Part shown: piece after piece, positions 1,318 through 45,186 of the stretch
Layout: every line of letters begins with the position of its first letter
How positions within the stretch are numbered: the first letter of the stretch is position 1
From: a virus
Taxonomy: Duplodnaviria; Caudoviricetes
DNA: 61,963 bases
IMG/VR virus record: IMGVR_UViG_3300018080_000189
Location: 1-61,963 of that record
Strand: one strand, 5' to 3'
Translations under genes and position numbers: made by a program
Notes under the pieces: generated by a model
What the model saw: the letters and a program-made list of their open reading frames with translations, nothing else
What the model was told of the DNA's origin: nothing
Database searches by the model: none

Positions 1318-1319
1318 TC

Positions 1320-1960: not shown

Positions 1961-1963
1961 ACT

Positions 1964-2212: not shown

Positions 2213-2226
2213 AAAGGGGGTAACCA

Positions 2227-2611: not shown

Positions 2612-2627
2612 TAAAAAGGTGTAACCA

Positions 2628-3146: not shown

Positions 3147-3152
3147 ATTATC

Positions 3153-3434: not shown

Positions 3435-3467
3435 CCATAATATAACAATAGAAAGGTATATAAAACA

Positions 3468-6732: not shown

Positions 6733-6971
6733 TACTCTACCCCCTCCGGTAATACTAGGTCTGCGTTCACTATATTATAAGAATTTAAATACACGATTGC
6801 ATCCAACACAGTATCGAACACTTTAAATATTGTGTATCTACCTTCTGTAAGATTATACCATTGAAATTTCGTATCAGTCCAAGGTAGTAGTATTTGCATT
6901 GAGGTAGTGTTTAACGCCACTATTGGTTTGTCATAATTCAGTTGTTTTTCTTTTTTGTTATACCATTTCAT
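6732..6971 (-). CDS. Hypothetical protein, paralogue of 6469-6732
   Basis: Shared N-terminus and W.NL..G motif. Confidence 0.75.
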   Translation of the reverse strand: MKWYNKKEKQLNYDKPIVALNTTSMQILLPWTDTKFQWYNLTEGRYTIFKVFDTVLDAIVYLNSYNIVNADLVLPEGVE

Positions 6972-20613: not shown

Positions 20614-21195
20614 CTATTTCCTCCTCAGTCTGGTAATCAGCTTACAATACCTCCCAAACTCGTCCTTGGTAATGTCCATTACCGGAATATCCAAATACGT
20701 GTAGTTCTTGAGTTCTTGGTGTAGTGCGTGGTGGAGTACCTTTTTGTGCATGTCGTCGAATAAAATAAAAGTCTTCTCATTACAATACTTTTCGAGAAGT
20801 TCCCCATAGTAGTATACTCGGCGTCGGGTCGTTCCCAGATCCATAAACACTATGTCTACAGGGCCCTTGCACCTACTATCCAATAAATTCCAAGGAACAA
20901 ACCCGCCAGTGTCGAAACACAGCTTGTTATCGCAGTATTTTTTGGTTTTTACCAGCCAGCCGGCATTATCATCCACCGACAATATCTCCAGGCTCAACTT
21001 TCCAAAATATGACCTCAATACATACGAACTAAATCCGGTACCTAGATCTAGGACACTATCGCCAGGTGTGCATAACCTCAATAACAACTCCAAGGTCTTG
21101 AGCGATGGGGCCATCTCTGAGACGTTCTTCAGGTACTCTCTATAGGGCTCCTGCATACGAACCCTGAAATCTTGTATTACTTCGTTATTGGTCAT
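20614..21195 (-). CDS. Class I SAM-dependent methyltransferase
   Basis: VLDLGTGFSS, SVDD, DIVFMD, LFDD. Confidence 0.8.
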   Translation of the reverse strand: MTNNEVIQDFRVRMQEPYREYLKNVSEMAPSLKTLELLLRLCTPGDSVLDLGTGFSSYVLRSYFGKLSLEILSVDDNAGWLVKTKKYCDNKLCFDTGGFVPWNLLDSRCKGPVDIVFMDLGTTRRRVYYYGELLEKYCNEKTFILFDDMHKKVLHHALHQELKNYTYLDIPVMDITKDEFGRYCKLITRLRRK

Positions 21196-21839: not shown

Positions 21840-22139
21840 TTATTTCACCACCCACAATGTAATTAATGTCGCTAATATACTAACCATCCCTCCTAGTGCG
21901 AGATATATCCGAATGCTTAATCCACCGTGTTCCTCTGTCATCTTCTGCCCTAACCTCGCTGTCTCTGTCTCTATACTCCCTTGGATACCAGTAGTCTGAG
22001 CGTGTATCGCCTCTACAAGCCTGTTGGTAGATTCTTCTAATCGGGTCAAAAACCATTTCTGCTGCTCCAGTAGTTTAGTGTTCATTTCCACTTGGGATTT
22101 GTAATTCTCCATTAGCATCTTTAATTGCTCGTCACCCAT
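21840..22139 (-). CDS. Coiled-coil protein with C-terminal TM segment (holin/XhlA-like architecture)
   Basis: Heptad region followed by IYLALGGMVSILATLITLWV. Confidence 0.45.
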   Translation of the reverse strand: MGDEQLKMLMENYKSQVEMNTKLLEQQKWFLTRLEESTNRLVEAIHAQTTGIQGSIETETARLGQKMTEEHGGLSIRIYLALGGMVSILATLITLWVVK

Positions 22140-22714
22140 TTGTGTGCTTCCTTTTTTAGTTTCTGTTTCATCTGCCAGAGTCTTCTTGATACCGATTCCC
22201 GCGTTATATGTAGATTATCGCTAATCCACTCTAACGACTTAGGGGCGCAATCTATACCATAGTAGTGTATTAACACCTTGCGTGTAATGTCAGTGGGAAC
22301 CTTATCCAATAACTGCTCTGCTAGTATCTTGTCTTCTACCGATCCCGTGCTTGGTATATTGACAGCTGTGTCTAAGTCGTAATGATACTTCTTGTAGTCT
22401 CGTATACGGGCTCTGTGTATTTGATTGAGGCACGCATTACTTACTACTCTGGTATAGTACCTAACTGGAAATTCTCTATCTATTAATCCACTTCTCTTTA
22501 TCGCCAGTACTAATTTTATACATGCCATCTGCACCATATCATCGTAGTTAGTATGCGTCCTGTCGTCGCCCTTTGAACGAATCTGGACATTAAACGTACT
22601 GCAAACACTGTGCACAATCGGCATAAGCGAGTGTAGTAGGGCCTCTTGTTGGGCAGTTAGCGATAAATCCTGTATTGTACTAAAGTATTGAGTTTGTCTC
22701 ACGGTTGCACCCAT
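22121..22714 (-). CDS. Sigma70-family (ECF-size) factor
   Basis: DDMVQMACIKL...VVSNACLN; SLEWISDNLHITRESVSRRL HTH. Confidence 0.75.
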   Translation of the reverse strand: MGATVRQTQYFSTIQDLSLTAQQEALLHSLMPIVHSVCSTFNVQIRSKGDDRTHTNYDDMVQMACIKLVLAIKRSGLIDREFPVRYYTRVVSNACLNQIHRARIRDYKKYHYDLDTAVNIPSTGSVEDKILAEQLLDKVPTDITRKVLIHYYGIDCAPKSLEWISDNLHITRESVSRRLWQMKQKLKKEAHKWVTSN

Positions 22715-23715
22715 TTGTCATACCAATCCTCTATACTGATGATTTGTTGATCTTTTATATGTCCACGATGATCAGCGCATTTCGCCACGATGTCGTCTAC
22801 GATCTTCGCAGCGGTTTTTTGGTCTAGTTTACAGTGCCGGGAGAATTTCTTTGCTCTGTCTTTGCCACCAAACATATAGGTAGCTATGATCTGATTACGT
22901 TTATAGTCTACAAACTCATAATTGTATCCACGTTTCTCAGCTAGATGATGTAAAGCTCTAGTCGGGTATATGCTGACGGTTTTCCCTAACACCGCGAGAG
23001 TGAAATTGATGAAATTTTCTCCCCCACCATAGATACCAAGTTCTTTAGGCCATCCACCAAGTAGATCATAAAGATAGCGCGACATCATCATACCACACGT
23101 AGACATACAAGGTACTATATAAGGCTCTTCTGCCTTTCTATAATTAGTAAATGAGTAATGATACAGTGCTTTATCAGGCTGGGATACTAGTTTATAAATT
23201 AACTGCTTACCATCTCTTTCTAGGAAATACGCTAGAGGCATGTGTAACGTGCCATCGAGCATCGCTGTTGGATGCTGTGTATAATATTGAAACATATCTA
23301 CCAGTGATTGCGGTCTAAGAGCACAATGTGCGTCTATGAAGAATAATATACTTCCGGTGGAGGCTGCTACACCAGCGTTTTTAGCATTCCAATGTGAGAG
23401 TTTATCTGAATACTCTACATATTTGAGCCATGGATGTATTCTTGAGTAAGAATTCACACGATCACCACCTGGATCTTCTCTGTTGTAGGGGGGCCTGTAT
23501 TTGTTGGCTTCTCCTCTAGTTATCTTACGAATTTTGCCGCAATCAGGACAGGTATAAGAATAATCAGCCTGTGCTGCGACTTTACTATTCCAATTATTTA
23601 CCATAATCACTTCAAAATCTATATCTGTATCACAGAGTTGATTCCAAAGTGATACTATTGTGAATAAATTCTGTGGGTATTCCCCACAGAATGGTGTTAT
23701 TATTGATAGTTTCAT
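22699..23715 (-). CDS. GT-A glycosyltransferase with polypeptide-GalNAc-transferase-like motifs
   Basis: SIITPF; NAKNAGVAASTGSILFFIDAHC (DxH); PCMSTCGMMMSR...LGGW...IYGGGEN...HH. Confidence 0.85.
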   Translation of the reverse strand: MKLSIITPFCGEYPQNLFTIVSLWNQLCDTDIDFEVIMVNNWNSKVAAQADYSYTCPDCGKIRKITRGEANKYRPPYNREDPGGDRVNSYSRIHPWLKYVEYSDKLSHWNAKNAGVAASTGSILFFIDAHCALRPQSLVDMFQYYTQHPTAMLDGTLHMPLAYFLERDGKQLIYKLVSQPDKALYHYSFTNYRKAEEPYIVPCMSTCGMMMSRYLYDLLGGWPKELGIYGGGENFINFTLAVLGKTVSIYPTRALHHLAEKRGYNYEFVDYKRNQIIATYMFGGKDRAKKFSRHCKLDQKTAAKIVDDIVAKCADHRGHIKDQQIISIEDWYDKWVQP

Positions 23716-23716
23716 A

Positions 23717-23911
23717 TTATAATCCTAACCATTTAAATAATAAATAATATTTAGCTAATCTAACCATAGTATGTATTAAGCTTTCGCTATAATCAAAATT
23801 CAAATACTCCTTAGGCAGCATTGAACTCGAATATGAAGTACACCATGTACTTGTCATTGTGGAACTGGTAGATCTAGTCCACGTTGTAGTTTTGGTGGTG
23901 TTTGTTGTCAC
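23717..23911 (-). CDS. Small protein with Ser/Thr-rich N-terminal half
   Basis: MTTNTTKTTTWTRSTSSTMTSTWCTSYSSS; GAGGAG RBS. Confidence 0.55.
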   Translation of the reverse strand: MTTNTTKTTTWTRSTSSTMTSTWCTSYSSSMLPKEYLNFDYSESLIHTMVRLAKYYLLFKWLGL

Positions 23912-25064: not shown

Positions 25065-25889
25065 TTATTTTATTATCCTCAATCCCGTACTTGATTTCTT
25101 ATCGGAATCATCCTCGATTATCTTCGGAATTTTTTCTCCAGATTGTGTTTCCCATTCCGTGAACCACGCCTTACTACCGGCTTTGCGGAATCCTTGCTCG
25201 ACCATCCAAGCGCGCCCGATATCCTTCACCGACGCCAAACGGTCTTGTTCTTGATACCACCCATACCGATGATCCGTAATATACTGCCCGAAATTTGCGT
25301 TTCCACCTTTGATTTGCTTCTCTGGGTTCTTAGTATCATCCAGGTGCGGAAGGACGTGTTTAATGAAGTCCTTACGTATTAGCGAGGGGTGTCCACAATA
25401 CCCCAGTAATCCACGTAGGTGTTTATCAACCTCGAAAAACGTACCGTTCCAATAAACCATTTTGTCCCAGCATTTCATTACGTGGGTGCCGGAACGGAAT
25501 GCGGAGAGGTGGAGGATTTCAAGTTCCGGGTAAATGCAGAGTAGAATTAGCATTTGTTGGAGGTTGATGGGATGTAGGAGTTCCCAGTCGTCCTCTAAGT
25601 GGAATACGCATTCACTATCGGATTGAAGGGCTTGTTGCCAGGTCCAGATGAACGCCTTTGGGAATGAGGACTCGTTGGGCATGTGCGCGGTGATTATATG
25701 TGGGCGGAAGTGCTGCTTACATACTCGAAATACCGCGTGCTGATCGCTCACTCCACACGGATCGATGTTGATGAATACGTTTCGGATTATGTTCATGTGA
25801 GGGCCGAACATATTACGACAGAATGACGAGAGGGTCCGGTCGAGAATTTCCGGTCGGCATGTCGCGGTTATAGTTATGTCGATACTCAT
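25065..25889 (-). CDS. GT-A fold glycosyltransferase
   Basis: ITATCRPEIL..TL.SF; FHLEDDW DxD-like motif; HPSL. Confidence 0.75.
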   Translation of the reverse strand: MSIDITITATCRPEILDRTLSSFCRNMFGPHMNIIRNVFINIDPCGVSDQHAVFRVCKQHFRPHIITAHMPNESSFPKAFIWTWQQALQSDSECVFHLEDDWELLHPINLQQMLILLCIYPELEILHLSAFRSGTHVMKCWDKMVYWNGTFFEVDKHLRGLLGYCGHPSLIRKDFIKHVLPHLDDTKNPEKQIKGGNANFGQYITDHRYGWYQEQDRLASVKDIGRAWMVEQGFRKAGSKAWFTEWETQSGEKIPKIIEDDSDKKSSTGLRIIK

Positions 25890-26064: not shown

Positions 26065-26667
26065 TCATTTGGCTATCCTTTCCCATATCATGAGGTTATT
26101 ATAATACGCCTTTATACCTTTCTTGTGTTGCCAGGGCTCCCATTTACGCTGGAGCTGCATTACCAAGTCGGTTCGTGCTCGATACCCCCGGTCAGTGAAT
26201 TTATGAAACCAATACGGATACGACTGGCAATTAACATGACACCTACCGCCCTGGCCAGGGGGTGCGGCGGTCATTACAATCATGTCTGAAAATGAACAGA
26301 GATTATCTACAAATATATCGGCATACTCTGGTTCTAAGTGTTCAGCTACCTCGAAACAGATAGCGATATCGGCTCTTCGGATTAGTAATTCTCTAATAGG
26401 TTTTCTGAGATCTCTGATAAACACGTAGTTGTTCATTGGTATGCCCACTGCTGGTAATGCGTTTGCCGTGCCTTCGATACCGTAGCAGGGGGATTTTATC
26501 CTCTCACTAAACCTAGTGAGCAGATCCCCATTACCACACCCGACATCGATTACGGATTTGGGATTGAAAACCTCCATAATTGCATCCACTACGATTGGTA
26601 CGCGCCAACTAAGTGATTTTCGTTGTGCAAAGAATTTTTTATTATACGCTATGTCTAAATCATACAT
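26065..26667 (-). CDS. Class I SAM-dependent methyltransferase
   Basis: VIDVGCGNG, CFEVAEHL, TAAPPGQGG..HVNCQ. Confidence 0.85.
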   Translation of the reverse strand: MYDLDIAYNKKFFAQRKSLSWRVPIVVDAIMEVFNPKSVIDVGCGNGDLLTRFSERIKSPCYGIEGTANALPAVGIPMNNYVFIRDLRKPIRELLIRRADIAICFEVAEHLEPEYADIFVDNLCSFSDMIVMTAAPPGQGGRCHVNCQSYPYWFHKFTDRGYRARTDLVMQLQRKWEPWQHKKGIKAYYNNLMIWERIAK

Positions 26668-27793
26668 TTTGATATTTCTCCATAAAATACTGTCCTGCGG
26701 CCCGACGATCCGGTCGGGGGTTAGCTTCGATAAATTCCAGAATATCGAGCATCTTGGGAATAGCTATCTCGTGTAGACCATTGATCCTCTTGTAAGTGGT
26801 GTGGTCTACTTCCGGGTACACATTAAGTGCTTGGTTTATTATACAGGCGATATTAGCCGGGTCCTGAGGTATGTGGACCGAATGTGTCCAGATCGTAGGC
26901 GATACGTGGCGCTCTCCGAATATTAGTGGTAAGCACCCACAACACATGGCCTCCAGAATACCACGATCATTCTGGCCACCGTATCCTGGATGCACAAATA
27001 ATTTAGTGCGATTCATAGCCAAAGCGAGCTGTTGTCGTGTCATGTTGATTGGTCCTTCTATATCCACATCACCAGAACTAATTATGTCGCGGATTATTTT
27101 CACTGAAATCCCCCGCATAAACCCGCCGGGGAGTATAGCGCGGGGCTTGACCCCGAATAGGTGGTAATACTTTTGAAGAGCTTGTACGGTGAAATGTTGA
27201 CCCTTTTTCTTATGTATGTGGGATGCGCCTATCATTACGTCGTATTCTTTGGGGAGTGTATTTGACGCGTCTATGATACCAAATATGTCTTCGTTGACGG
27301 GTTTTGAAAATGGAAAATGGAGCCGACCACGAGCGAGTTTAGGCGTGTCAATCAGGTCATTCAGCGTGATGTCCCAGAATGGCCAAGGGTGTCGATTGGT
27401 ATTAGCGCGGTAGAACAGTATCCAGTTTTCCCGGCGTTTATATATGTGATTGAGGAGAGGGTACCATGCTTTGAACCCTCCCCTCACTACTAATATATCT
27501 CCAGGGTGGATGATGTTAGCTACCATGGCCATTGAAGGGATTGTGTAGAGAGCTGATCGGTGACCTAGATTAAGGACGCCGGGGGAGATTTTGGAATCTA
27601 CAAACACGCGCAGGTCAGTTATGTGGTGCTGGTCGGTGAGGGTTTTGAACATATTCACCATACCGTCTGAATAGGCTGGGATAGCGAATTTGTTGCGAGT
27701 GGTTCGGTCGGGGTCAAAATGCGGGGCAGGATCGGAAGGGTAGGCGATAGGAGCACCCCCTGAGGTGTAGAGATATATTAGTTTTTGTGGCAT
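26660..27793 (-). CDS. GT-B (GT4-like) glycosyltransferase
   Basis: KKKGQ...LFVHP..GQNDRGILEAMCCG. Confidence 0.7.
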   Translation of the reverse strand: MPQKLIYLYTSGGAPIAYPSDPAPHFDPDRTTRNKFAIPAYSDGMVNMFKTLTDQHHITDLRVFVDSKISPGVLNLGHRSALYTIPSMAMVANIIHPGDILVVRGGFKAWYPLLNHIYKRRENWILFYRANTNRHPWPFWDITLNDLIDTPKLARGRLHFPFSKPVNEDIFGIIDASNTLPKEYDVMIGASHIHKKKGQHFTVQALQKYYHLFGVKPRAILPGGFMRGISVKIIRDIISSGDVDIEGPINMTRQQLALAMNRTKLFVHPGYGGQNDRGILEAMCCGCLPLIFGERHVSPTIWTHSVHIPQDPANIACIINQALNVYPEVDHTTYKRINGLHEIAIPKMLDILEFIEANPRPDRRAAGQYFMEKYQNV

Positions 27794-28208: not shown

Positions 28209-28631
28209 TTATATCTTGCCAGTTAATAAAAATACAAGCCTACCCCAAATGGTAAGCCTCTTGAGTTTTGATAATTTGTTCTCCATTCCTGCGAGTGTGC
28301 CTTTGAGTTTATCCATTGAGATTCGACGCTCTTTATCCACACGTAGTAGTTTTTTGATTTCGTAATTCTGATCAACTATTCTTTCAGACTGATCATGAAC
28401 GCAGTCGAATGCTATACCGATAATATTCTGTACTCTCTTAGTCATACCTATCGTTACAGCTGGCTTTCCAGGTACCACATAGTCTATACCGCGTATTAGT
28501 TCTAGTTTAGCTGGACTGTTATTTTCTCTAGTTCTGAATTTAAAGCGTTTTTCGTCATCTCTTTCTTCCAATTCAATACTGTGATTAGCAGTCTTAAAAT
28601 ATTTAACATCAGTTATAACTATCATACCCAC
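28209..28631 (-). CDS. Hypothetical coiled-coil protein
   Basis: ORF. Confidence 0.55.
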   Translation of the reverse strand: MGMIVITDVKYFKTANHSIELEERDDEKRFKFRTRENNSPAKLELIRGIDYVVPGKPAVTIGMTKRVQNIIGIAFDCVHDQSERIVDQNYEIKKLLRVDKERRISMDKLKGTLAGMENKLSKLKRLTIWGRLVFLLTGKI

Positions 28632-29941
28632 AACCTACTCTCTTGCAATATCGGACCGTAGTATCGCGTATATAGATAATCATAGTTATAATGCCGCCGC
28701 ATGAACGTCTTCAACCTCACACTCTCATTAGCCAATATCCGCCCCAACACAATCAGAGCGATATCGCGCAATAACGGATCTATGCCGTTAATGTGATTCA
28801 CGCCACGATTGAATGACCCGAAATCAAAGAACAGCGCATTATACCCACTCACCTCGTGCATCATATCAAGTGAACCATTGAGTACGACGATTGGGCTCCC
28901 ACACAGAGCCGCTTCTGGGAGTACTAGCCCGAACGTCTCCTCGCGGGTAGGGAATATAAATACATTCGATAATTGGAATAGTTCCCGGATCATGTGTTTG
29001 GGTATGCCCACGCCGAACCGCCCCTCTTTGCCTGCGGGCTTGAAGTCTGGTGTGAATATAATCTCTGTACCGATGGTGAGACCGAGATCCACTGCTTGCT
29101 TTTTGTAGTTGTTGATGATGTCGAGTTGTTTCTGGCCGGTGGCCCACTGGGTGGCAATGACCAAACACACGGATTTACCCAAGCGCTTAAAGTGCCCGAA
29201 AATCCCCAACACTTCAGAGAGACGCTTAGCCTCTAGTCGATCCACCGACGCTGGGTAGATTTGAACTATCTCCGCTTGCATTACACCTGGGTAGGTATCG
29301 ATGAACTGCCTGGTATCTTCGCTATAATCGCATAGAGACCGTATGTCTTTAATATGGGGTATTACTCTCACATCGTCCATCACGCCTCGGTACTGTTCAG
29401 CCACTCTCAGCGCGTCAGAGCGATTTGGGTATAGGAGTTTGTGGCGCTTCCCGTAGAGCTTGATCTGCCAGAAATCAGACTCGGCTGACGGTACTGAGTG
29501 AATCGCGTGTAGCCATTTGACATTTGGTAAGTCCTTTGACGCTTCCATAATAGCGACAGCGAATGGTAAGTGCCAGCCTTGAAACACAATGTCTTCGGTA
29601 AACACCAGATCATAGTCTTTGAGTTCTTCTCTGAGCATCGCAGCGGTTTTGTTCTTGATCTGTTGGTGTTCGGCGGGGGTGCTGACTCCCGGCGCGGGTT
29701 TGTACGATTGGTCTTCACCTGTGAATTGCGCGAGCGTGTGATAGTCTGCCAGATGGGTGAACGGGATTTTCTTTTCGAGTATTACGTCGGCAGGGAACTC
29801 CTCGCCATGGTAGCGTTCAGACACGAATAAATGCACCTCGTGTCCGTATTTAGTGAGCATTTCTGCCCGGTCCTTTACTATGCCGGTCAGCGAATACTGC
29901 GGCATAAAGGATTGGAATGTAGTGATGATTCCAATTTTCAT
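28622..29941 (-). CDS. GT4-family (GT-B) glycosyltransferase
   Basis: MKIGII; FIFPTREETFGLVLPEAALCG; GGAGGAGG RBS. Confidence 0.9.
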   Translation of the reverse strand: MKIGIITTFQSFMPQYSLTGIVKDRAEMLTKYGHEVHLFVSERYHGEEFPADVILEKKIPFTHLADYHTLAQFTGEDQSYKPAPGVSTPAEHQQIKNKTAAMLREELKDYDLVFTEDIVFQGWHLPFAVAIMEASKDLPNVKWLHAIHSVPSAESDFWQIKLYGKRHKLLYPNRSDALRVAEQYRGVMDDVRVIPHIKDIRSLCDYSEDTRQFIDTYPGVMQAEIVQIYPASVDRLEAKRLSEVLGIFGHFKRLGKSVCLVIATQWATGQKQLDIINNYKKQAVDLGLTIGTEIIFTPDFKPAGKEGRFGVGIPKHMIRELFQLSNVFIFPTREETFGLVLPEAALCGSPIVVLNGSLDMMHEVSGYNALFFDFGSFNRGVNHINGIDPLLRDIALIVLGRILANESVRLKTFMRRHYNYDYLYTRYYGPILQESRLWV

Positions 29942-30216: not shown

Positions 30217-32226
30217 TTATGGAGGAGGAGTAGAGGTTGTAGTACAGGTAGTAGTGGTAGAAGTGTGTGTAGAGGAGGTAGTGGATAACGTCGATGCTGT
30301 AGAGGATGTAGTAGAGCATGATGAGGTTGTGGTGGAGAGTGTTGATGCTGTTGATGAAGTCGAGGACGAGGTAGTCGAAGTGTGCGTTGTCGAGGTAGTT
30401 GAGAGTGTGGAGGCTGTGGATGAGGTTGAAGACGAGGTGGTTGTGGTTGTTGAGAGTGTGGAGGCTGTGGATGAGGTTGAAGACGTTGAAGACGAGGTGG
30501 TTGTGGTTGTCGTACTAGATGATGTCGTAGTCCAGAACTTAGGATACCCGTCTGGACAACACGTATTGTACGTAAGATTATCTAAGTCGAAATAACCACC
30601 TTGGTCACTTGCGGACCCGTGCGCCTCTAGTCTAATGCCTTCTATGGCAGACGCTTGGCCGCCAAAGTCTCTACTATCTACTAGAACCCAAGATCCATTA
30701 TAGTAGTAATAGGTGCTCAAGACGTTCCCCACTCTAGTCACTCTAGCCGATGCCGGTAGACTAGTCAACCCACTATCCTGGCTGTATTGATTATCACCAC
30801 TTACGGTAAGTTTAGACTGCGCTCTGTAATCCCCCTCGGAGTATTGCCACAATAACAGCCTAGCATAACTGCTTTGGCTTTGAGCAGAATCAATAAAAAA
30901 GAAGAAGAATGAGTTTCCTAATTCAGTCGGGTCGGGGGTATAGTTGGATATGTCAACACTCACATCAAAATCGCCCGATGGTAACATATACTGGTAATCT
31001 GCGTAAACTAGCTCCCCATCATCTGAACTACAATATAGTCTTAGCTTATTGCCTACTAATGTGGCCGTGGAGTTTCCGTTTTCAGTGATTGAAAATCGTG
31101 TCATATCCTCGAATGTCTCGCTGTATTCACACCAATAAGTGGTAGTAGTGGTAGAAGAAGAGGTAGAAGTATGAGTAGATGTTGTGGTAGATGTTGTGGT
31201 AGAAAAAGAGGTTGTGGTAGTGGAAGAGGTTGTCGAAGAAGACGTGGTGGAGAGCGTAGTTGAGGACGTTGATGTAGTAGAGAGCGTAGATGCTGTACTG
31301 GACGTTGAGGAGGACGTAGAGGATGAGGAAGAGGATGTGGTTGTGGAAAGTGTGGATGCAGTAGAGGATGTCGAGCTAGTGGTTGACATAGAGGAAGAGG
31401 TAGTAGAGAGTGTAGACGAAGAAGAAGAGGTAGTGGACAGTGTAGACGAAGAAGACGATGTGGTTGAGAGTGTAGATGCTGTAGATGATGTAGTACTAGA
31501 GCTTGAAGACGTTGTTGTTGTAGATGACGTGGTTGAGATAGTTGAGGCCGTCGTGCTAGTACTGGAGCTTGAAGATGTTGTGGATGTCGAAGAGCTGGTG
31601 GTTGACATAGAAGACGAGGTAGTTGAGAGTGTACTGGAGCTTGAAGATGAAGATGACGAGGTGGTTGTAGATGACGTAGTAGATAATGTAGACGCTGTGG
31701 AGGACGTAGAGGATGAGGAAGAGGTTGTAGACAAGGTAGATGAGGTAGTTGAATACGTAGACGAGGTTGTGGATATAGTAGATGATGTAGATGAAGACGA
31801 GGATGAAGAGGTCGTAGTAGATAGTGTCGTTGAGGTTGTAGTGGATGACGACGATGAGGACGTAGAAGATGATGTAGTGGTTGTAGAGGACGTGGACGTG
31901 GTGGTAGAGGTAGATGAGCTTGTAGATGTGGTCGAGGACGAGGATGACGTGGACGATGTAGAAGACGACGAGGATGTTGAACTCGACGTTGTGCTTAGCG
32001 TACTAGCTGTAGAGGATGTAGAAGATGACGAAGAAGCAGTAGAGGACGTGGATGAGCAGGACGAGGTTGAGGTTGAAGTGGTCGTGGTTGACGACGTAGT
32101 GGTATGCCCCATTAGTTCATAGATCTGCTCGATTGTGCATCGGTATGTGTGCCCGTTTTGCACGACGACGAGTTGATCTGACCAATGTAGAGCGGGTACC
32201 TGGTCGTACTGGGTTATTTTTGGCAT
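30217..32226 (-). CDS. Mucin-like Ser/Thr-rich fibre protein with one ConA/lectin-like domain
   Basis: 41-aa N-cap shared with 42577-45186, ~320-aa S/T tract, ~200-aa beta domain, S/T tail ending TPPP. Confidence 0.8.
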   Translation of the reverse strand: MPKITQYDQVPALHWSDQLVVVQNGHTYRCTIEQIYELMGHTTTSSTTTTSTSTSSCSSTSSTASSSSSTSSTASTLSTTSSSTSSSSSTSSTSSSSSTTSTSSSTSTTTSTSSTTTTSSSTSSSSSSTTTSTTLSTTTSSSSSSSTSSTISTTSSTYSTTSSTLSTTSSSSSTSSTASTLSTTSSTTTSSSSSSSSSTLSTTSSSMSTTSSSTSTTSSSSSTSTTASTISTTSSTTTTSSSSSTTSSTASTLSTTSSSSSTLSTTSSSSSTLSTTSSSMSTTSSTSSTASTLSTTTSSSSSSTSSSTSSTASTLSTTSTSSTTLSTTSSSTTSSTTTTSFSTTTSTTTSTHTSTSSSTTTTTYWCEYSETFEDMTRFSITENGNSTATLVGNKLRLYCSSDDGELVYADYQYMLPSGDFDVSVDISNYTPDPTELGNSFFFFFIDSAQSQSSYARLLLWQYSEGDYRAQSKLTVSGDNQYSQDSGLTSLPASARVTRVGNVLSTYYYYNGSWVLVDSRDFGGQASAIEGIRLEAHGSASDQGGYFDLDNLTYNTCCPDGYPKFWTTTSSSTTTTTTSSSTSSTSSTASTLSTTTTTSSSTSSTASTLSTTSTTHTSTTSSSTSSTASTLSTTTSSCSTTSSTASTLSTTSSTHTSTTTTCTTTSTPPP

Positions 32227-34490: not shown

Positions 34491-37424
34491 TTATGGTATA
34501 ATAGTGGTTGTAGTTGTTACGATTGTCGAGGTGGTGGTCGTAGTAGAAGTGGTTGTAGAAGAGGTTGTCCATATTGTAGTACCTGTTGGGCATCCATGGC
34601 GGAATGTAAGATTGTCGAAGTCTACGTGGCCCCCATTAACATAACTGTACACAAAGCACGTCACACTATCGATTAAGGCGGCGTAGGATGTGAAGTCGTG
34701 TGACGATGTAGCAGCTACCCAAGATGCTCCATTGTAGTAGTAAGTTTGTAGTATAGTTCCTACTCGTGTTATCCTTAATTTTTGTGGTAATGACGCTGAT
34801 GTGGTCAAATACTCATCATCAGATACGCCATTTATCACTAGGTACTCTCTAATTAAATACCCGGCATCTGTCCTATGAGCTGTTATGTAAATACAATTAT
34901 CAGCAGAGTTTTTTCGTACATCATCACCAACGTACAGCACTGGGTATATACCATTATCAGCCTGTTCATAATCTTCATTACTGAGATCAACACGTATATC
35001 AAAATCCCCAGCGTTGATAGCATATAGGTAATCAGCTGTCGCCTCTGCACTATGGCTATAATCTATTGAGCCTCGCATTTTACCAGACACGCTGGTGATG
35101 TCGGAATAAGAGTCGTGATTGATCTGCCAATCATCTAAGTTAGTGAACTCTTCATTATACGAACATACCGTGGTAGTAGTTGTGCTGAGTGTCGCAGTGG
35201 TGGAGGTAGTCGATATAGTAGTTGAGGACGTTGAAGCGGTACTAGAGGTAGACGATGTAGAGATCGTAGATGAGGTTGTAGTAGTAGTTGGGCCTGGGCA
35301 CCCATCGACGAATTTAAGATCGTCCATCAGCACTTGCCCGCCTGGGTTTGATACAAACAACACTCTAACGTGAGCGAGATTAGCTGCGAACGCTGAAAAA
35401 TTCCAAGCATCGAGTTGAGTCCAGCTGCCGGCGTAGTAATAATACGCTCGGACGTTATTGCCCTCGCGGGTTACCCTAAGTCGAGACGGCACGCCTGCTA
35501 TTGTGTCCGATGTTTCGCCCTGATCTACTGAGTTTATAGTAGCATTAGCCACGACAGTGTGAGAGGTGTCGATGTAGTACCCAACGTAGGCTTGCTCTGT
35601 TGGTGTCGATACACTACTGCGTATATCGAGATAGATCTTTGAGCCGTTAGATGAAGATTCTGAGTAGTAGCTATCGAGATCGATTCTGATATCAAAATCT
35701 CCTGAAGATGCGCGATAGTCGTATATGCACTGGGTATTGCCGCTGTTGCCGTCGCCTACTAGCATCTTTAGTTGGCCAGCTTGTATTGTGGAGCTGCCGT
35801 CGCCGTTATTGGTAACTGTCCAGTTATCCAGAGATGCGAAGGATTCATCATAAACACAGAGAGAAGTTGTAGTGGTGGTTAGCGAGATAGTAGAGGTTGT
35901 GGTGGATAGTGTAGAAGCCGTTGAAGAGGTTGATGATGTTGTTGATAATGTAGATGATGAGGTAGAAGTAGATGACGAGGTAGTAGATGATGTAGAAGAA
36001 GACGAGCTAGTAGTAGTAGTGGTAGAGGAAGAGCTGGATGTTGATGATGTCGAAATTGTTGATAGTGTAGATGATGTCGAGGCTGTTGACGAGGTAGTAG
36101 AGGCTGTAGATGACGTTGATGAGGTTGATGCGGTGGATGATGTCGTGGATAGTGTACTAGTAGTAGACGCTGTAGAGGATGTTGAACTGGACGAGCTGGA
36201 TGTGGTAGTGGTTGACGATGACGACGTGGTAGTGGATAACGAGCTGGTTGACGACATTGATGATGTGGTGGAATAGGTTGAGGATTGTGTAGAGACGGTG
36301 GATGAGGTAGATGAAGTTGACGATGAGGAGCTAGAAGTAGATGAGGTGGATGAGGTTGACGTAGTAGTGGAGGAGAATGACGAAGATGAGGATGTTGTTG
36401 AGGCTGTAGAGGATGTTGTTGAGCTAGACGATGAGGTTGTGGTAGTCCAGGCTTTCGGATATGCGTCAGGACACCCCAAACGAAACATGAGGTTGTCTAC
36501 GTCGAGGGAGCCGCCTCGTGTAGAGGTGTCGTAGGCTAATAGCTCTATACGATCAAGCTCACTTGCGTTGGATGAGAAGTCGTGAGTATACGCCGTCTCC
36601 CAAGAAGTAATAAAATAATCAATAGAGAGTTCATTACCTGTCCGGACTATGCGAACTGAGCTGGGCTCCCCCATTCCGGTGTCGATATCGGTATAGGTCG
36701 AGAGGTTGTCTTTGTGGGATTTGGTTATTGAAAACACTCCAGCAGCAGTAGAGCGGATTTTGATTGTCGAGTAGTATAGAGAGTCAGATGAGCGGATACG
36801 GAATTCAAAAGTGAAGCCGTTGGTAGCGTCGTCAGGGGTGTAGTCGGATGTGCAGAGGTCTATACTGAAATCACCATCTGGGATAAGGTATTGGTAGAGC
36901 ATAGTGATCTGGGTATTGAGAGAGTCGGGTAAATCGATTTTACATTCCCAATCCCGGGCGCTTTTGAGATAGCTGGTAGCGGTTTCGGTTCCGTCGAGCT
37001 TAGTGACATACCACCAGGCCAGATCGTGAAACGTATCATCTAGCGAACAGTAATAGTCGGCGATTTCAATAGGGGCGAGTTTTTCACTCACGTATGCGAC
37101 TAGCGTGATTAGGCCGTGATCGTTTTGGAGTGAATTCAGGTTAACTAGGAATATACCTTCGGGGATGGCCATAACCACTTCGGAATAATTCTTAAATATG
37201 TATTCGAGAGTGGTAGCTTGCCCTTCGTCCAATTCAGCCACTATGGTTAGAGTACGGTCGCCGTCGGAATACCCGCTGTCGCTTATCGAAACACCTCCAT
37301 CGAGAGTGGCAGTGCGAGTAGCGCGTCGTGAGAGTGTCTTTATATCTGTGTCAGCTAGATTGGCCTTAAAGAACACATTACCACGGAGGTCGAAGGTCTG
37401 AGTTGATATTCCAACATACATCAT
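34491..37424 (-). CDS. Distal-tail-like protein fused to three lectin-like domains and Ser/Thr linkers
   Basis: First gene after the tape measure; N-terminal RRATRTATLDGGV..SD.GYS.GDRTLT; three GDF.I repeats. Confidence 0.75.
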   Translation of the reverse strand: MMYVGISTQTFDLRGNVFFKANLADTDIKTLSRRATRTATLDGGVSISDSGYSDGDRTLTIVAELDEGQATTLEYIFKNYSEVVMAIPEGIFLVNLNSLQNDHGLITLVAYVSEKLAPIEIADYYCSLDDTFHDLAWWYVTKLDGTETATSYLKSARDWECKIDLPDSLNTQITMLYQYLIPDGDFSIDLCTSDYTPDDATNGFTFEFRIRSSDSLYYSTIKIRSTAAGVFSITKSHKDNLSTYTDIDTGMGEPSSVRIVRTGNELSIDYFITSWETAYTHDFSSNASELDRIELLAYDTSTRGGSLDVDNLMFRLGCPDAYPKAWTTTTSSSSSTTSSTASTTSSSSSFSSTTTSTSSTSSTSSSSSSTSSTSSTVSTQSSTYSTTSSMSSTSSLSTTTSSSSTTTTSSSSSSTSSTASTTSTLSTTSSTASTSSTSSTASTTSSTASTSSTLSTISTSSTSSSSSTTTTTSSSSSTSSTTSSSTSTSSSTLSTTSSTSSTASTLSTTTSTISLTTTTTSLCVYDESFASLDNWTVTNNGDGSSTIQAGQLKMLVGDGNSGNTQCIYDYRASSGDFDIRIDLDSYYSESSSNGSKIYLDIRSSVSTPTEQAYVGYYIDTSHTVVANATINSVDQGETSDTIAGVPSRLRVTREGNNVRAYYYYAGSWTQLDAWNFSAFAANLAHVRVLFVSNPGGQVLMDDLKFVDGCPGPTTTTTSSTISTSSTSSTASTSSTTISTTSTTATLSTTTTTVCSYNEEFTNLDDWQINHDSYSDITSVSGKMRGSIDYSHSAEATADYLYAINAGDFDIRVDLSNEDYEQADNGIYPVLYVGDDVRKNSADNCIYITAHRTDAGYLIREYLVINGVSDDEYLTTSASLPQKLRITRVGTILQTYYYNGASWVAATSSHDFTSYAALIDSVTCFVYSYVNGGHVDFDNLTFRHGCPTGTTIWTTSSTTTSTTTTTSTIVTTTTTIIP

Positions 37425-42576: not shown

Positions 42577-45186
42577 TTACTCCGGGGGGCTCGTAGATGT
42601 TGTCGTCATTGCTGTCGTTGTCGTTGTCGTTGTTGTTGTTGTTGTCGTTGTAGTAGTCACTACAGGACAACCATCTACAAACTTTAAATCATCCATGTAG
42701 ATTAAACCGCCCGATGGCGTAGATGTCATTCGTATCTTTACGAGTTTTGGGTTGTCTGATCGTGTAGAGAAATCCCAAGAATCTAACATTACCCAGGAAG
42801 AATAGTAATAATACACTTTTATGGTTGATCCGTCTCGAACTAACCTAAATCGTGATGGTGTTCCGCCTATCGTGTCTCCGGTCTCGCCTTGTGCTACGCC
42901 ATCTATAGTAGCATTAGCGGATACCTTAGCACCATCATTTACACGATATGATATATAAGCGGAGTCTGTATTACCTACTCCGTTAGTAGTTTCTATACTG
43001 AATGCTATAACAGTCCCTAGAGTTGACGCCTCTGAATAGTAAGAGTCCATGTCTATTCTAATATCAAAATCGCCACTGGGCACTTTGTAATCATAGTAAC
43101 AATTAGATCCACCAGTATCACCATTAGGAACTTCCAATTTTAATTTATTCCCAAATATAGTCGCTGTTCCATCATCTATCTCTTCCACATCCCAAGCGTC
43201 TAATGATTCAAACCCTTCATCCCATTCACACAGTGCTGTAGTAGTAGTAGTTGACGAGGACGATGAGGCGGTAGTGGAGGTAGAGGAGGTAGATGAAGTT
43301 GACGATGATGAGGTAGTGGATAGAGTCGAGGTAGTAGAGTCGGTAGATGATGTGGTGGATGTCGTTGATGCTGTTGATGATGTTGATGTAGAGGTTGACG
43401 AAGATGATGTTGTAGAAAGCGTAGAGGTTGTCGATTCGGTTGTAGATATCGTAGAAGCAGTCGAGGATGTTGTTGATGCGGTAGAGGATGAAGTAGTAGT
43501 GGATGAAGTAGATGAAGATGAAGAAGTTGTAGTTAATGTTGATGTTGTGGTCGATGTAGTCGTCCATACTACGTCTTCTCCTGTCGGACACCCATCTACA
43601 AATACTAAGTTGTCGTAAGAAACAAACCCACCACGGTTATTTTGATCGTATACGTAGAAGTGTATGCTTTTCAGATTAGTGGCTCTGCCACCAAAATCGT
43701 CGCTACGTATTAAATTCCAAGACCCAGAATGCTCGTAATACAGATAGACTACTGTGCCGGTACGGACTATTCTAAATCCTGTTATTACTGTCGCCAGCCC
43801 TACCTCAGTCGTAGTCTGATTCACACTGTTTATCGTGTTCCTACCATATACTCTGAATGGATTAGCGTCGTTGGTATGTCTGAGGCGTAATCTGCACCAG
43901 TCTGTCCAATAGTCACCAATGCCGCCACCGACTCTAAACTCTACATGAAATCCGTCTGTTGAGTTGTAATATGTGTAGCCATTTATGTCCACCCTAATGT
44001 CAAAATCGCCTGAGTCTATAGCATACACATAAGTTGCTAATATATAGGTGTCGGCTGAGTCTGGCAAAGATAGCCTTAGTCTTTCCGATGTTATGGTTGC
44101 GGTTTCGCCAGAACCCCCAGAGTATATGTCCAGTAAATTCAGACTTGAATCGTCACTGAACATCTCGTTATACAAACACCAATAAGTAGACGTAGTTGTT
44201 GTGGACGATAGTGTAGAGGAAGAGGTTGTAGTGAGGGTAGTAGAGAGGGTGGACGCGGTTGAGGAGGTTGTGGTGAAGGTGGTGGTAGAGGTTGAGGATG
44301 TGTGCGTGGTAGAGGTTGTGGAGAGTGTGGATAAGGTCGAAGTAGTGGATAGTGTTGAGGATGAGGTAGAGGTAGTTGAGGATGAGGTAGAGGTAGAGGT
44401 AGTTGAAAGCGTAGAAGAAGAAGTGGAAATGGTGGAAGCTGTAGAGGAGGTTGAAGAAGAAGTGGAAATGGTGGAAGCTGTAGAGGAGGTTGAAGAGGAT
44501 GTAGTAGTGGTAGAGATAGTGGATGCAGTTGACGAAGTTGAAGAAGACATAGTAGTGGTAGAGCTAGTGGATACTGTAGAGGAGGTTGAAGATGAAGTGG
44601 TGGTAGTGGAGCTAGTGGATGCAGTTGATGAAGTCGATGAAGATGTGGATGCAGTGGACGAGGTTGAGGATGTGGTCGTCATTGTGGTAGATAGAGTAGT
44701 GGAGACAGTAGATGCTGTAGATGATGTAGAGGTAGTAGATGACGTAGAGGAGGATGTAGAAGAGGAAGAAGAAGAAGTGGAGGTAAAGGTAGTGGAAGTT
44801 GATGTTGAGACTGTAGAGGATGTCGTAGATGTGGAAGAGGAGGTAGATGAAGTAGTAGATGAGGCAGTAGATGAGGTAGTAGATGATAAGGTAGTAGATG
44901 AAGTCGTGGTAGATGACGATGTAGAGGTTGAGGTCGAAGACGACGATGTGGAGAGCGTAGACGAAGTAGAAGCGGTAGATGATGTTGAGCTTGAACTACT
45001 AGAAGTCGAGAATGTAGATGAAGTGGTCGATGACGTGGAGTTCGTGGATGACGTGGTGGTGTGGCCCATTAACTCAAATATTTGCTCGATTGTGCATCTA
45101 TAGGTCTTGTCGCCCCGAACTACTAATAGTTGGTCAGGCCAATGTAGTATTGGTGCTGAATCGTATTGTGATATTTTTCTTGACAT
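42577..45186 (-). CDS. Mucin-like Ser/Thr-rich fibre protein with two lectin-like domains
   Basis: N-cap paralogous to 30217-32226; S/T tracts of about 290 and 110 aa. Confidence 0.8.
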   Translation of the reverse strand: MSRKISQYDSAPILHWPDQLLVVRGDKTYRCTIEQIFELMGHTTTSSTNSTSSTTSSTFSTSSSSSSTSSTASTSSTLSTSSSSTSTSTSSSTTTSSTTLSSTTSSTASSTTSSTSSSTSTTSSTVSTSTSTTFTSTSSSSSSTSSSTSSTTSTSSTASTVSTTLSTTMTTTSSTSSTASTSSSTSSTASTSSTTTTSSSTSSTVSTSSTTTMSSSTSSTASTISTTTTSSSTSSTASTISTSSSTSSTASTISTSSSTLSTTSTSTSSSTTSTSSSTLSTTSTLSTLSTTSTTHTSSTSTTTFTTTSSTASTLSTTLTTTSSSTLSSTTTTSTYWCLYNEMFSDDSSLNLLDIYSGGSGETATITSERLRLSLPDSADTYILATYVYAIDSGDFDIRVDINGYTYYNSTDGFHVEFRVGGGIGDYWTDWCRLRLRHTNDANPFRVYGRNTINSVNQTTTEVGLATVITGFRIVRTGTVVYLYYEHSGSWNLIRSDDFGGRATNLKSIHFYVYDQNNRGGFVSYDNLVFVDGCPTGEDVVWTTTSTTTSTLTTTSSSSSTSSTTTSSSTASTTSSTASTISTTESTTSTLSTTSSSSTSTSTSSTASTTSTTSSTDSTTSTLSTTSSSSTSSTSSTSTTASSSSSTTTTTALCEWDEGFESLDAWDVEEIDDGTATIFGNKLKLEVPNGDTGGSNCYYDYKVPSGDFDIRIDMDSYYSEASTLGTVIAFSIETTNGVGNTDSAYISYRVNDGAKVSANATIDGVAQGETGDTIGGTPSRFRLVRDGSTIKVYYYYSSWVMLDSWDFSTRSDNPKLVKIRMTSTPSGGLIYMDDLKFVDGCPVVTTTTTTTTTTTTTTTAMTTTSTSPPE
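44414..44491. repeat. 39-bp tandem duplication inside an S/T tract
   Basis: GAAGAAGAAGTGGAAATGGTGGAAGCTGTAGAGGAGGTT twice. Confidence 0.85.

Follow-up and report, generated by a model that had tools for sequence, protein, structure and literature searches.

A GT27-like glycosyltransferase gene linked to genes for serine/threonine-rich appendage proteins in a siphovirus genome

Polypeptide GalNAc-transferases (ppGalNAc-Ts, family GT27 in CAZy) are Golgi enzymes of roughly 500-630 amino acids, which feature an N-terminal anchor, a GT-A catalytic domain and a C-terminal ricin-type lectin domain. They start mucin-type O-glycosylation, UDP-GalNAc being the donor of a GalNAc added with retention to polypeptide Ser/Thr. 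In bacteria, O-GlcNAcylation of serine-rich-repeat adhesins is started by the GtfA/GtfB pair (GT4). Jelly-roll modules are known from evolved Dit/CBM tail proteins, such as the Dit of Lactobacillus phage J-1, which carries a CBM2 (5ly8). Mycobacteriophages Che8, Corndog and Myrna encode glycosyltransferases which are reported to glycosylate the virion proteins of the same phages, the glycans being attached to the C-terminal ends of subunits of the capsid and tail tube (PMC12363180, PMC12619734). According to another report, a bacterial gene with the annotation polypeptide N-acetylgalactosaminyltransferase is expected to function in the manner of TagN, a wall-teichoic-acid GalNAc transferase (PMC11032452). 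In the literature searched, mycobacteriophages are the one documented case of phage virion glycosylation, at short C-terminal acceptor sites. No report of a phage GT27-like enzyme, or of mucin-like phage fibres having their own transferase, was found in the same searches.

The window, i.e. the whole stretch of DNA that was analysed, is a complete 62-kb siphovirus (tailed phage) genome. The genes discussed are the following.

22699..23715, minus strand: ATG-started ORF of 338 aa, ppGalNAc-T (GT27)-like glycosyltransferase, hereafter GT
25065..25889, minus strand: p274, probable GT-A (GT2-like) fold, from Atlas structure neighbours
26065..26667, minus strand: SAM-dependent methyltransferase, 200 aa (Pfam Methyltransf_23, 1.1e-05, and related families)
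26660..27793, minus strand: p377, GT-B fold, GT4-like (weak Pfam match to Glyco_trans_1_4, 0.047)
28622..29941, minus strand: GT4 (GT-B) glycosyltransferase, 439 aa, first gene of the cassette (Pfam Glycos_transf_1, 3e-07)
30217..32226, minus strand: fibre-like protein of 669 aa, 64% Ser+Thr, presumed acceptor
34491..37424, minus strand: protein of 977 aa, 38% Ser+Thr, presumed acceptor
42577..45186, minus strand: protein of 869 aa, 52% Ser+Thr, presumed acceptor
45197..47701, minus strand: protein of 834 aa, 50% Ser+Thr, presumed acceptor

The GT ORF is a real gene, because it matches 801 database proteins (E<=0.001) and 230 clusters at 50% identity. Its 3'-terminal 16 nt overlap the start of a downstream sigma-factor gene. 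A 64-aa S/T-rich ORF located just upstream (23717-23911) was dropped, as no homolog of it is conserved (best E 3.5 across 79 loci). An earlier note had read in the GT translation the motif layout of GT27 enzymes, and every string quoted is present in the stated order: SIITPF..E, NAKNAG, STGSILFFIDAHC, PCMSTCGMMMSRYLYDLLGGWPKELGIYGGGENFINF and YPTRALHH. The DxH motif corresponds to D128/H130, YGGGEN to residues 229-234, and the distal histidine is H257. The GT-A domains of ppGalNAc-Ts have DxH, the GGEN block and the distal histidine, and the apparent counterparts in GT follow the same order. GT differs in having YGGGEN in place of WGGEN, in its size, and in an additional helical C-terminal region (residues ~270-336 of the model); it also lacks both the N-terminal anchor and the C-terminal lectin domain. 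The AlphaFold model (pLDDT 93.5) is a single globular domain, the N-terminus of which enters strand 1 directly. Confidence is lowest for residues 261-270, in the loop after H257, a loop which in ppGalNAc-Ts closes over a peptide groove. No hydrophobic 19-mer exceeds a Kyte-Doolittle mean of 1.38, the maximum falling within the Rossmann core, and no type II membrane anchor is visible in the hydrophobicity scan or in the model. The absence of a ricin-type (CBM13) lectin domain, already claimed in the earlier note, agrees with the length of the protein, its one globular domain and the lack of Pfam matches to lectin families at E<=0.1. On sequence and model, GT is best explained as a soluble, metal-dependent GT-A glycosyltransferase, which would differ from ppGalNAc-Ts also in being cytoplasmic and is phage-encoded.

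Pfam recognizes in GT only GT2-type families, so the caveat that accompanied the original reading, namely that some bacterial GT2 enzymes also feature DAH and that acceptor specificity is unproven, still stands, and applies to the donor too. The match to PF00535 (Glycos_transf_2; E 6.9e-10, 39.5 bits vs a cut-off of 23.3) is shared by 45/45 family members, and cannot separate GT2 from GT27, because PF00535 covers the catalytic domains of ppGalNAc-Ts as well. Glyco_transf_7C, the Pfam domain that covers the Gal/GalNAc-T motif (WGGEN...), matches none of the close family members (0/45, E<=0.01); P0126, a fused protein distant from the others, is the one member to match it (27 bits vs a cut-off of 23). 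PHROGs include no family for GT, and NCBIfam returns HpsN alone, with an E of 0.03, far under its cut-off.

Solved structures point to GT27, rather than to GT2 in the CAZy sense (inverting GT-A enzymes with DxD). Twelve PDB chains match GT in a phmmer search at E<=1, and 11 are ppGalNAc-Ts; the best match, 6s22, covers residues 85-262 with an E of 0.0017, weak as a single-sequence value. A family profile built from 45 sequences was also searched against PDB. The top four matches are ppGalNAc-T9, ppGalNAc-T10 and TgT3 chains (E 7.7e-07 to 1.1e-05), and the ppGalNAc-T alignments span positions 75-256, from DxH through the distal histidine. The profile match of the bacterial GT-A enzymes TarP, heparosan synthase and TarS is limited to short N-terminal stretches; GT2-type chains (TarP, sll0501, 3bcv, 6yv7) match over short stretches (1-52, 55-137 or 200-254), with E-values weaker than those of GT27. 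When the GT model was compared to PDB by Foldseek, ppGalNAc-Ts accounted for 30/30 of the matches listed (ranks 1-50; E 1.4e-15 to 1.2e-11, TM by query 0.60-0.70), and no GT2-type chain was among the top fold matches listed. D128-A-H130 aligns with DSH/DAH of PGANT9 and TgGalNAc-T3, and YGGGEN and H257 align with WGGEN and GH of ppGalNAc-Ts. Conservation within the family peaks at the positions corresponding to the GT27 DxH, the Glu of GGEN and the distal His, which are invariant or nearly so in 105 diverse representatives (D128 104/105, H130 105/105, E233 104/105, H257 105/105). The GT27-like layout is therefore backed by sequence, profile and fold neighbours in PDB, and the structure prediction that had been suggested as a check agrees with it. 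The likeness of GT to ppGalNAc-Ts, as judged from sequence and predicted structure, exceeds chance. By the same measures ppGalNAc-Ts are its nearest solved relatives, and GT is called GT27-like, as family membership is not established at the 12-16% identity seen in the fold alignments.

The S/T tracts mentioned in the earlier note are real. Four ORFs contain 38-64% Ser+Thr, and include 30-residue windows at 97-100%. The S/T proteins have gene positions typical of virion appendages, and feature ConA-like lectin/CBM modules, according to both alignment and fold. The gene of the 834-aa protein comes right after the Neck1/tail completion gene; the tracts span residues from about 105 to 395 and from 765 to 834, with TSTPPP at the end. 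The gene of the 869-aa protein is located in the interval that separates the Neck1 gene from the tail terminator gene. Its product features two lectin-like modules, and shares with the 669-aa protein an N-terminal domain of ~42 aa. The gene of the 977-aa protein, in which S/T linkers connect three lectin-like modules, is in the Dit position, directly after the tape measure gene (37432-40182). The gene of the 669-aa protein is the last of the tail module, directly upstream of the cassette; in the protein the ~42-aa domain is followed by an S/T tract of ~300 aa, a lectin-like module and an S/T tail, again ending with TSTPPP. The lectin-like modules have a jelly-roll fold (5ly8 is found at rank 45, E 6.2e-06). 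In this respect, and because one carrier is in the Dit position, these proteins resemble evolved Dit/CBM tail proteins; they differ because the modules are mounted on long S/T linkers and are accompanied by a glycosylation cassette.

The association of GT with S/T tracts was monitored at the DNA level by searching whole viral records for a run of 14 Ser/Thr codons. The run was found in 34/71 GT-bearing records vs 0/77 control records, drawn by an arbitrary 14-mer and unmatched for habitat (Fisher p 6e-14). In records at least 90% complete the counts are 14/16 vs 0/16 (p 5e-7), two of the 16 GT records having no run. Since the DNA pattern can match antisense acidic runs, a strict protein-level test was added. 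Such is the case of the cultured relative Tunturi_4: the one match in its whole genome is an antisense acidic run, and the 14.5 kb examined are devoid of S/T tracts. At the protein level, S/T tracts were found at 33/73 GT viral loci vs 0/80 control loci (p 1.8e-13), and 40/73 GT loci have no tract within +-10 kb. The Fisher tests overstate independence, because GT records are interrelated and may have common hosts or habitats. S/T-positive loci are spread over 28/53 GT clusters at 70% identity and 7/13 at 50% identity. The S/T ORFs at GT loci are all on the same strand as GT (51/51), and many either stop 22-600 bp short of the GT4 start or open immediately past the GT stop. A terminase-based control set included three loci only, and was not used. 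The S/T codon run was found in at least 119 stretches in a scan of the collection. Viral S/T tracts do not generally come with GT, nor do they need it, because GT was found in 1/57 of the other viral records featuring such tracts.

GT is genetically linked to presumed virion acceptors, as in phage virion glycosylation systems, and its genomic partners are Ser/Thr tracts of mucin-like composition. Mycobacteriophages are similarly reported to encode glycosyltransferases for their own virion proteins, which is presumed here from the genes. The presumed acceptors are different, since they offer hundreds of S/T residues and belong to neck and tail appendages. No relation of GT to the mycobacteriophage enzymes is detectable, because a tblastn search against 50,697 phage records gave a single match, in a Tunturiibacter phage. 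In the Tunturiibacter phage Tunturi_4 the family member is gp2, whose gene is placed between those of terminase and portal.

The cassette is located in the window directly after the tail-fibre genes, and is made, in collinear order, by GT4, the GT-B-like p377, the methyltransferase, the GT-A-like p274 and, last, GT. From the sequences it is probable that the cassette glycosylates the S/T tracts. The long tracts of the four appendage proteins would be O-glycosylated inside the infected cell, prior to assembly. GT, a catalytic domain apparently built like that of eukaryotic ppGalNAc-Ts, minus membrane anchor and lectin domain, would be the best candidate in the cassette for adding the first sugar onto Ser/Thr hydroxyls; judging from the model, the chances that this step belongs to GT, rather than to GT4, are about even. 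The metal would be held by D128, H130 and H257, and the donor is probably a UDP-hexose or UDP-HexNAc. After this step, the remaining transferases, along with the methyltransferase, would lengthen the glycan and cap it. Glycosylated linkers between lectin-like modules may result in stiff, protease-resistant, mucin-like stalks. The protein acceptor, the initiating role and the donor sugar of GT, its retaining chemistry and its biological benefit are all presumed. A complex prediction that paired GT with 40 residues of S/T sequence from the 669-aa protein (score 0.02, mark 0.32) speaks neither for nor against. Taken as a whole, the explanation that a GT27-like enzyme in a phage cassette starts O-glycosylation of the appendage S/T tracts is slightly favoured on sequence grounds.

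GT had been proposed in the earlier note as the initiating enzyme for the S/T tracts. A functional link to the tracts is supported by their genomic association, which is strong and was replicated; the initiating role is not established, because GT4, p377 and p274 are in the same cassette. GT4 (28622-29941), perhaps together with p377, might start the glycosylation of the tracts, GT extending or branching the glycan. This is judged rather unlikely, and is the most serious alternative. A GT4 homolog is the most constant partner of GT, being found upstream and on the same strand in 62/79 GT loci. Homologs of p274 are upstream of GT in 43/79 loci, and collinear homologs of the methyltransferase and p377 in 41/79 and 38/79, respectively. 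In 22 loci nothing but GT4 and GT is detectable. This is the minimal cassette, and since 8/22 of these loci are S/T-positive, p274, p377 and the methyltransferase are dispensable.

The pairing of GT4 with an adjacent GT-B-like protein is reminiscent of GtfA/GtfB, and the process proposed here likewise involves several cytoplasmic enzymes, which would O-glycosylate very long Ser-rich stretches of surface fibre proteins. Unlike adhesin repeats, which are SASA-type, phage tracts are mixed Ser/Thr, and no accessory Sec system is involved. GT4 has no specific similarity to GtfA: its PDB neighbours are generic GT4 enzymes (sucrose-phosphate-synthase-like, the best, 0.0029; BshA, 0.011), and no GtfA chain is among its PDB sequence matches at E<=1. 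p377 has no PDB sequence match, and its neighbours in Atlas, both by feature and by structure, belong to GT4/GT1 clusters (TM 0.64-0.74). p274 has no match in Pfam, NCBIfam, PHROG or PDB sequences, and its Atlas structure neighbours, mostly viral, include GT2 clusters (TM 0.65-0.76). The GT27-like fold, on the other hand, is that of the only solved GT-A family known to accept bare Ser/Thr peptides. Single loci argue in both directions. In one S/T record GT4 has two homologs and a GT27-like gene was not detected, the cassette there reaching the contig end; locus L069 hosts GT and S/T ORFs, and the 10 kb upstream, covered in full, contain no homolog of GT4 (n=1, with 1.1 kb downstream). GT4 homologs were found in 2/50 other S/T-tract viruses, a result which fails to separate GT4 from GT, because one virus has both genes and the other sequence terminates at the contig end.

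It is improbable that GT acts instead on a non-protein acceptor, i.e. a glycopolymer of the host wall or membrane, for superinfection exclusion or seroconversion, S/T tracts being unrelated or otherwise modified. The GT2 call by Pfam, the JGI label of GT relatives (involved in cell wall biosynthesis) and the about half of GT loci having no S/T tract nearby would fit this reading. According to one source, phage glycosyltransferases are better known from DNA and serotype modification (PMC12619734). The predicted TagN-like gene (PMC11032452) may be cited in the same sense. TagN-type enzymes are prokaryotic and may bear a ppGalNAc-T-type annotation; they act on a polyol-phosphate polymer and belong to a cell-wall gene cluster, whereas GT is part of a structural module with S/T proteins. 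The tight cis-linkage of the S/T genes, often adjacent to the cassette, and the strength of the association relative to controls both argue against a non-protein acceptor. So do the lack of any convincing membrane span in the cassette enzymes (hydrophobicity scan), and the lack of flippases and polyprenol-linked glycosyltransferases in the window proteins covered by the Pfam scan. Moreover, the family is seldom found in cells: the GTDB species set includes 6 loci, which show the same phage-like cassette. The cultured strain Desulfatiglans anilini encodes a homolog, 47% identical, on a contig of 390 kb. What longer family members have in addition is either another GT2 domain or PqqD, and no lectin. 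As a lead for the preferred reading, in P0245, a distant member (26% identity, pairwise E 7e-23), the PqqD domain, a peptide-recognition element, is N-terminal (Pfam 1e-10; n=1).

The backbone lineages of GT phages differ, because TerL, MCP and portal genes are common to the window and to 1, 0 and 0 of the 79 GT loci, and the cassette is best explained as mobile among phages. Cassette and S/T genes stay adjacent nevertheless, and positives occur in separate GT clusters. Both observations make it very improbable that the association results from phylogenetic hitch-hiking, one phage lineage, of a single host group and habitat, having S/T fibres, either unglycosylated or glycosylated by the host, along with a cassette that has another target, for example phage DNA, in spite of the relatedness of GT-bearing records through the cassette, the lack of habitat matching in the controls, and the restricted host range hinted at by 3/6 cellular matches being Desulfobacterota MAGs. 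DNA glycosylation as the main reading was rejected, because no base-hydroxymethylase or similar base-modification gene was found in the ten replication-module ORFs scanned.

GT27-like initiation on appendage tracts being the preferred reading, a broader proposal may be advanced more tentatively, at somewhat short of an even chance on the sequences available: that this is a dense, cytoplasmic, phage-borne mucin-type O-glycosylation of neck and tail fibres, started by a relative of ppGalNAc-Ts reduced to the bare catalytic domain, that the appendages are truly mucin-like, and that the family is a prokaryotic/viral sister of GT27. GT would represent a different enzyme family, the nearest look-alike in prokaryotic viruses of the animal mucin-initiating enzymes, travelling with fibres containing up to 64% Ser/Thr. 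If this is true, mucin-like glycoproteins and an initiator of the ppGalNAc-T type would be present in bacterial viruses, and GT would provide a minimal soluble scaffold of 338 aa to study and engineer peptide O-glycosylation in bacteria. It would also make hypotheses on how GT27 evolved accessible to testing, bearing on the source of the eukaryotic mucin-type pathway, and would explain the long, protease-resistant, sugar-coated and lectin-bearing appendages of some environmental phages.

The glycosyltransferase gene (GT) lies where the earlier note had placed it, on the minus strand at 22699..23715; it encodes 338 aa from an ATG start, and all the motif strings quoted there are found in its translation in the order stated. 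The gene is real and widespread. Database searches returned 801 homologous proteins at E<=0.001, mostly 305-350 aa long and 45-80% identical, and when 1.84 billion cluster representatives were searched exhaustively, 230 clusters matched at E<=0.001, 91 at E<=1e-30. Among 50,697 deposited phage genomes the sole detectable relative is found in Tunturiibacter phage Tunturi_4. This protein is 25% identical, features DNH at the motif, and is encoded between terminase and portal genes. Desulfatiglans anilini is one cultured bacterium with a homologue (47% identical).

In Pfam the GT matches Glycos_transf_2 alone (6.9e-10), and NCBIfam and PHROGs revealed nothing further on its identity. Since this model (PF00535) also spans the catalytic domains of polypeptide GalNAc-transferases (ppGalNAc-Ts, GT27), the match cannot separate GT2 from GT27. 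Solved structures were compared in three independent ways, all of which point to ppGalNAc-Ts. Single-sequence phmmer against the PDB gave 12 matches at E<=1; 11 of these are ppGalNAc-Ts, with a lowest E of 0.0017. When 45 family members were combined in a profile, its top four matches were ppGalNAc-T9, T10 and Toxoplasma T3 (E 7.7e-07 to 1.1e-05), spanning positions 75-256, whereas for bacterial GT-A enzymes, for example TarP, heparosan synthase and TarS, the match was confined to short stretches at its N-terminal end. An AlphaFold model of high confidence (pLDDT 93.5, pTM 0.92) was compared with the PDB by Foldseek, and all 30 rows listed for ranks 1-50 are ppGalNAc-Ts (human T1, T2, T4, T10, T12, fly PGANT9 and Toxoplasma T3; E 1.4e-15 to 1.2e-11, TM by query 0.60-0.70, identity 12-16%). 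The alignments place FIDAHC against LDSHC/LDAHC, YGGGEN against WGGEN, and LHH against VGH. In ppGalNAc-Ts the Mn2+ ion is held by three ligands, the DxH pair and a distal His, and the sugar pocket is lined by the Glu of GGEN. The top-conserved GT residues in 105 full-length representatives, with identity down to about 26%, are D128 (104/105), H130 (105/105), G231 (105/105), E233 (104/105) and H257 (105/105), followed by R262, Y264 and N274. As judged from its sequence, the protein is a soluble GT-A enzyme, and its DxH...E...H constellation is invariant.

The GT27-like motif layout is therefore borne out by PDB sequence, profile and fold neighbours. Unlike GT27 enzymes, the GT lacks a membrane anchor and, as the earlier note had claimed, no lectin domain was found. 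Sequence identity is low, and among the 45 close family members there is no match to Pfam Glyco_transf_7C, the only protein above threshold being a distant fused one (P0126). For these reasons the GT is called GT27-like in architecture, membership of GT27 being unproven. P0126 (740 aa) and P0123 (601 aa) feature an additional N-terminal GT2 domain, and hence two GT-A domains per chain. In the GT and its closest phage relatives a beta-hairpin is inserted (window 23518-23559, residues ~53-66) that has one CxxC (YTCPDCGK) and is absent from most family members. The match to a Pfam zinc ribbon is very weak (0.064), and a zinc site cannot form from two cysteines alone.

The window spans a virus record from end to end (CheckV completeness 100%), and the phage is a lambda-like siphovirus. 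Its main features, in minus-strand reading order, are as follows.

Main features of the phage genome
54324-56306, minus: large terminase gpA
52550-54082, minus: lambda-family portal
Head module, minus: head maturation protease, head decoration protein
49282-50298, minus: major capsid protein E
Before the tape measure, minus: Neck1/tail completion protein, tail terminator, probable tube protein
45197-47701 and 42577-45186: Ser/Thr-rich (S/T) ORFs of 834 and 869 aa, 50% and 52% Ser+Thr, between Neck1 and tail-terminator genes
37432-40182, minus: tape measure
34491-37424: S/T ORF, 977 aa, 38% Ser+Thr, straight after the tape measure, in Dit position
30217-32226: S/T ORF, 669 aa, 64% Ser+Thr, last of the tail module, just before GT4
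28622-29941, minus: GT4 glycosyltransferase (Pfam 3e-07)
26660-27793, minus: p377, 377 aa, atlas neighbours in GT4/GT-B clusters
26065-26667, minus: SAM methyltransferase
25065-25889, minus: p274, 274 aa, no sequence family, structural neighbours GT2-like
22699-23715, minus: GT, 338 aa, Pfam Glycos_transf_2
22121-22714, minus: sigma-70-type factor, regions 2 and 4 (weak Pfam; PHROG RNA polymerase sigma factor 3e-06)
Replication module: family A DNA polymerase, helicase, ERCC4 nuclease

The sigma factor gene is directly downstream of the GT and starts 16 nt ahead of its stop codon; because of this overlap the two look translationally coupled. The DNA polymerase (6971-9520) is a fused protein, in which a uracil-DNA-glycosylase-superfamily domain precedes the exonuclease and polymerase domains. 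The left end (1-4300) has 32-34% G+C against 40-53% elsewhere, and hosts small plus-strand ORFs, while nearly all other genes run opposite. This region may have a separate origin and serve as an early or anti-defence module.

GT4, p377, the methyltransferase and p274 are all located upstream of the GT on the same strand, and together with it make up a glycosylation cassette. Homologues of the window proteins were searched by tblastn at 79 loci encoding GT relatives (73 viral, 6 in cellular genome bins). Collinear homologues were found for GT4 at 62, p274 at 43, the methyltransferase at 41 and p377 at 38 of the loci; for the backbone the figures are 1 (terminase), 0 (capsid) and 0 (portal). Because the cassette is shared and the backbone is not, these genes are a module moving between otherwise unrelated phages. 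A second methyltransferase (20614-21195; Methyltransf_24, 2e-05), downstream of the sigma factor, has homologues at 2/79 loci only, and is thus probably not a cassette member. Directly adjoining the GT start is a 64-aa ORF (23717-23911, GTG start) whose N-terminus is S/T-rich; since no homologue was detected in the 79 related loci (best E 3.5), this ORF is unlikely to be a gene.

The family is rare among cellular genomes, six loci being found in about 185,000 species (one genome per species). All are in metagenome bins, three Desulfobacterota, one Proteobacteria and two archaeal, and feature the same cassette and phage-like neighbours. The archaeal bins are assigned to Thorarchaeota (locus L321) and Thermoplasmatota (L322). 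L321 hosts the whole cassette and homologues of the tail genes of the window phage, and a phage contig placed in the wrong bin is a likelier explanation than a gene of archaea.

In the four S/T ORFs, 30-residue windows reach 97-100% Ser+Thr. A module of ~200 aa is found in six copies (25-32% identical) between the tracts; structure prediction gives it a concanavalin-A-like jelly roll, with moderate confidence (pLDDT 70). Neighbours by fold include GH43 C-terminal domains, legume lectins, ERGIC-53 and, from the evolved Dit of phage J-1, its CBM2. The proteins may be pictured as neck and tail appendages, long mucin-like stalks bearing lectin-like heads. The 669-aa and 869-aa proteins have in common a ~42-residue N-terminal domain (MPKITQYDQVPALHW... 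and MSRKISQYDSAPILHW...) leading directly into the S/T tract. An S/T ORF in the contig binned as Thorarchaeota (L321:2178-3038) begins with a 40%-identical copy, and the domain may serve to attach the fibres to the virion. C-termini are near-identical in three of the four proteins (30217-30240, 45197-45220, 42577-42600), ending twice in TTTSTPPP and once in TTSTSPPE; the fourth ends in TTTIIP. The shared tail forms a conserved cap at the C-terminal end of the tracts.

The GT is genetically linked to S/T virion proteins and to the other cassette members, three of them transferase-like and one a methyltransferase. Runs of 14 Ser/Thr codons (WCN) were found in 34 of 71 whole GT-encoding viral records (73 loci, two being on one record and one record left out), and in 14 of 16 with a completeness of 90% or more; the reversed pattern occurs in 3/71. 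None was found in control viral records sampled with an arbitrary 14-mer (0/77, of 80 chosen; 0/16 near-complete), which yields Fisher p values of 6e-14 and 5e-7, respectively. As the DNA pattern also catches antisense acidic runs, one of which was matched in Tunturi_4, the test was repeated on translated ORFs (S/T content of 80% or more over 30 residues, 6 Thr or more, S/T frame the longest ORF at the site). Both versions are limited by the kinship of GT records through the cassette and by controls drawn without habitat matching. S/T ORFs were found at 33/73 GT loci (1.30 Mb) versus 0/80 control loci (0.73 Mb; p 1.8e-13), and no tract was found within +-10 kb at 40/73. Positive loci belong to 28/53 GT clusters at 70% identity and to 7/13 at 50%. 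All 51 S/T ORFs are on the GT strand, and many end 22-600 bp ahead of the GT4 start or start immediately past the GT stop. Viral S/T tracts are generally independent of the GT, since only 1/57 searchable viral records chosen solely for the S/T run has one among the matches listed.

Which enzyme starts the glycan is a separate matter. S/T ORFs are found in 8 of the 22 loci where GT4 and GT alone are detectable, and p274, p377 and the methyltransferase are for this reason accessory, plausibly serving extension and O-methylation. GT4 is a candidate starter in place of the GT. Compared with the PDB it resembles generic GT4 enzymes only, and its homologues are as rare as those of the GT in other viruses with S/T tracts (2/50 among the matches listed). 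One locus (L069) has GT and S/T ORFs, GT4 being absent from the 10 kb upstream. To our knowledge, ppGalNAc-Ts are the one structurally known GT-A family accepting unmodified Ser/Thr peptides, and because of the resemblance to this fold the GT27-like enzyme is given about an even chance of being the initiator. A single distant family member (P0245, 423 aa), alone in its cluster and encoded on a 3.1-kb contig, retains DAH, IYGGEE and the distal His and has an N-terminal PqqD domain. PqqD is the peptide-recognition element of RiPP pathways, and by this fusion a peptide may be the substrate in one or more branches of the family. The earlier note, which had the GT initiating glycosylation of the S/T tracts, was thus right in its observation and partly supported in its interpretation: the genomic association holds, and the initiating role is argued from fold analogy.

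If the GT is the initiator, late in infection it would bind a nucleotide sugar via a metal held by D128, H130 and H257, and attach the sugar, in the cytoplasm, to the hydroxyl groups of Ser/Thr in the unfolded tracts. GT4, p377, p274 and the methyltransferase would then build up the glycan. The glycosylated linkers would turn extended and protease-resistant, keeping the lectin modules off the particle.

Virion glycosylation is known in mycobacteriophages, where capsid and tube proteins are reported to accept the glycans at their C-termini (PMC12363180, PMC12619734); in the window phage, in contrast, they are presumably mucin-like S/T tracts. Mycobacteriophage virion glycosyltransferases have no detectable relation to the GT among the 50,697 deposited phage genomes. 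Neither a ppGalNAc-T-like phage enzyme nor a phage that encodes both mucin-like fibres and the transferases for them was found in the literature searched, which covered few subscription journals and no supplements. Self-glycosylation of phages being already known, we rate as new the enzyme family and the mucin-like class of acceptors, and the link between the GT and the S/T tracts merits experimental follow-up.
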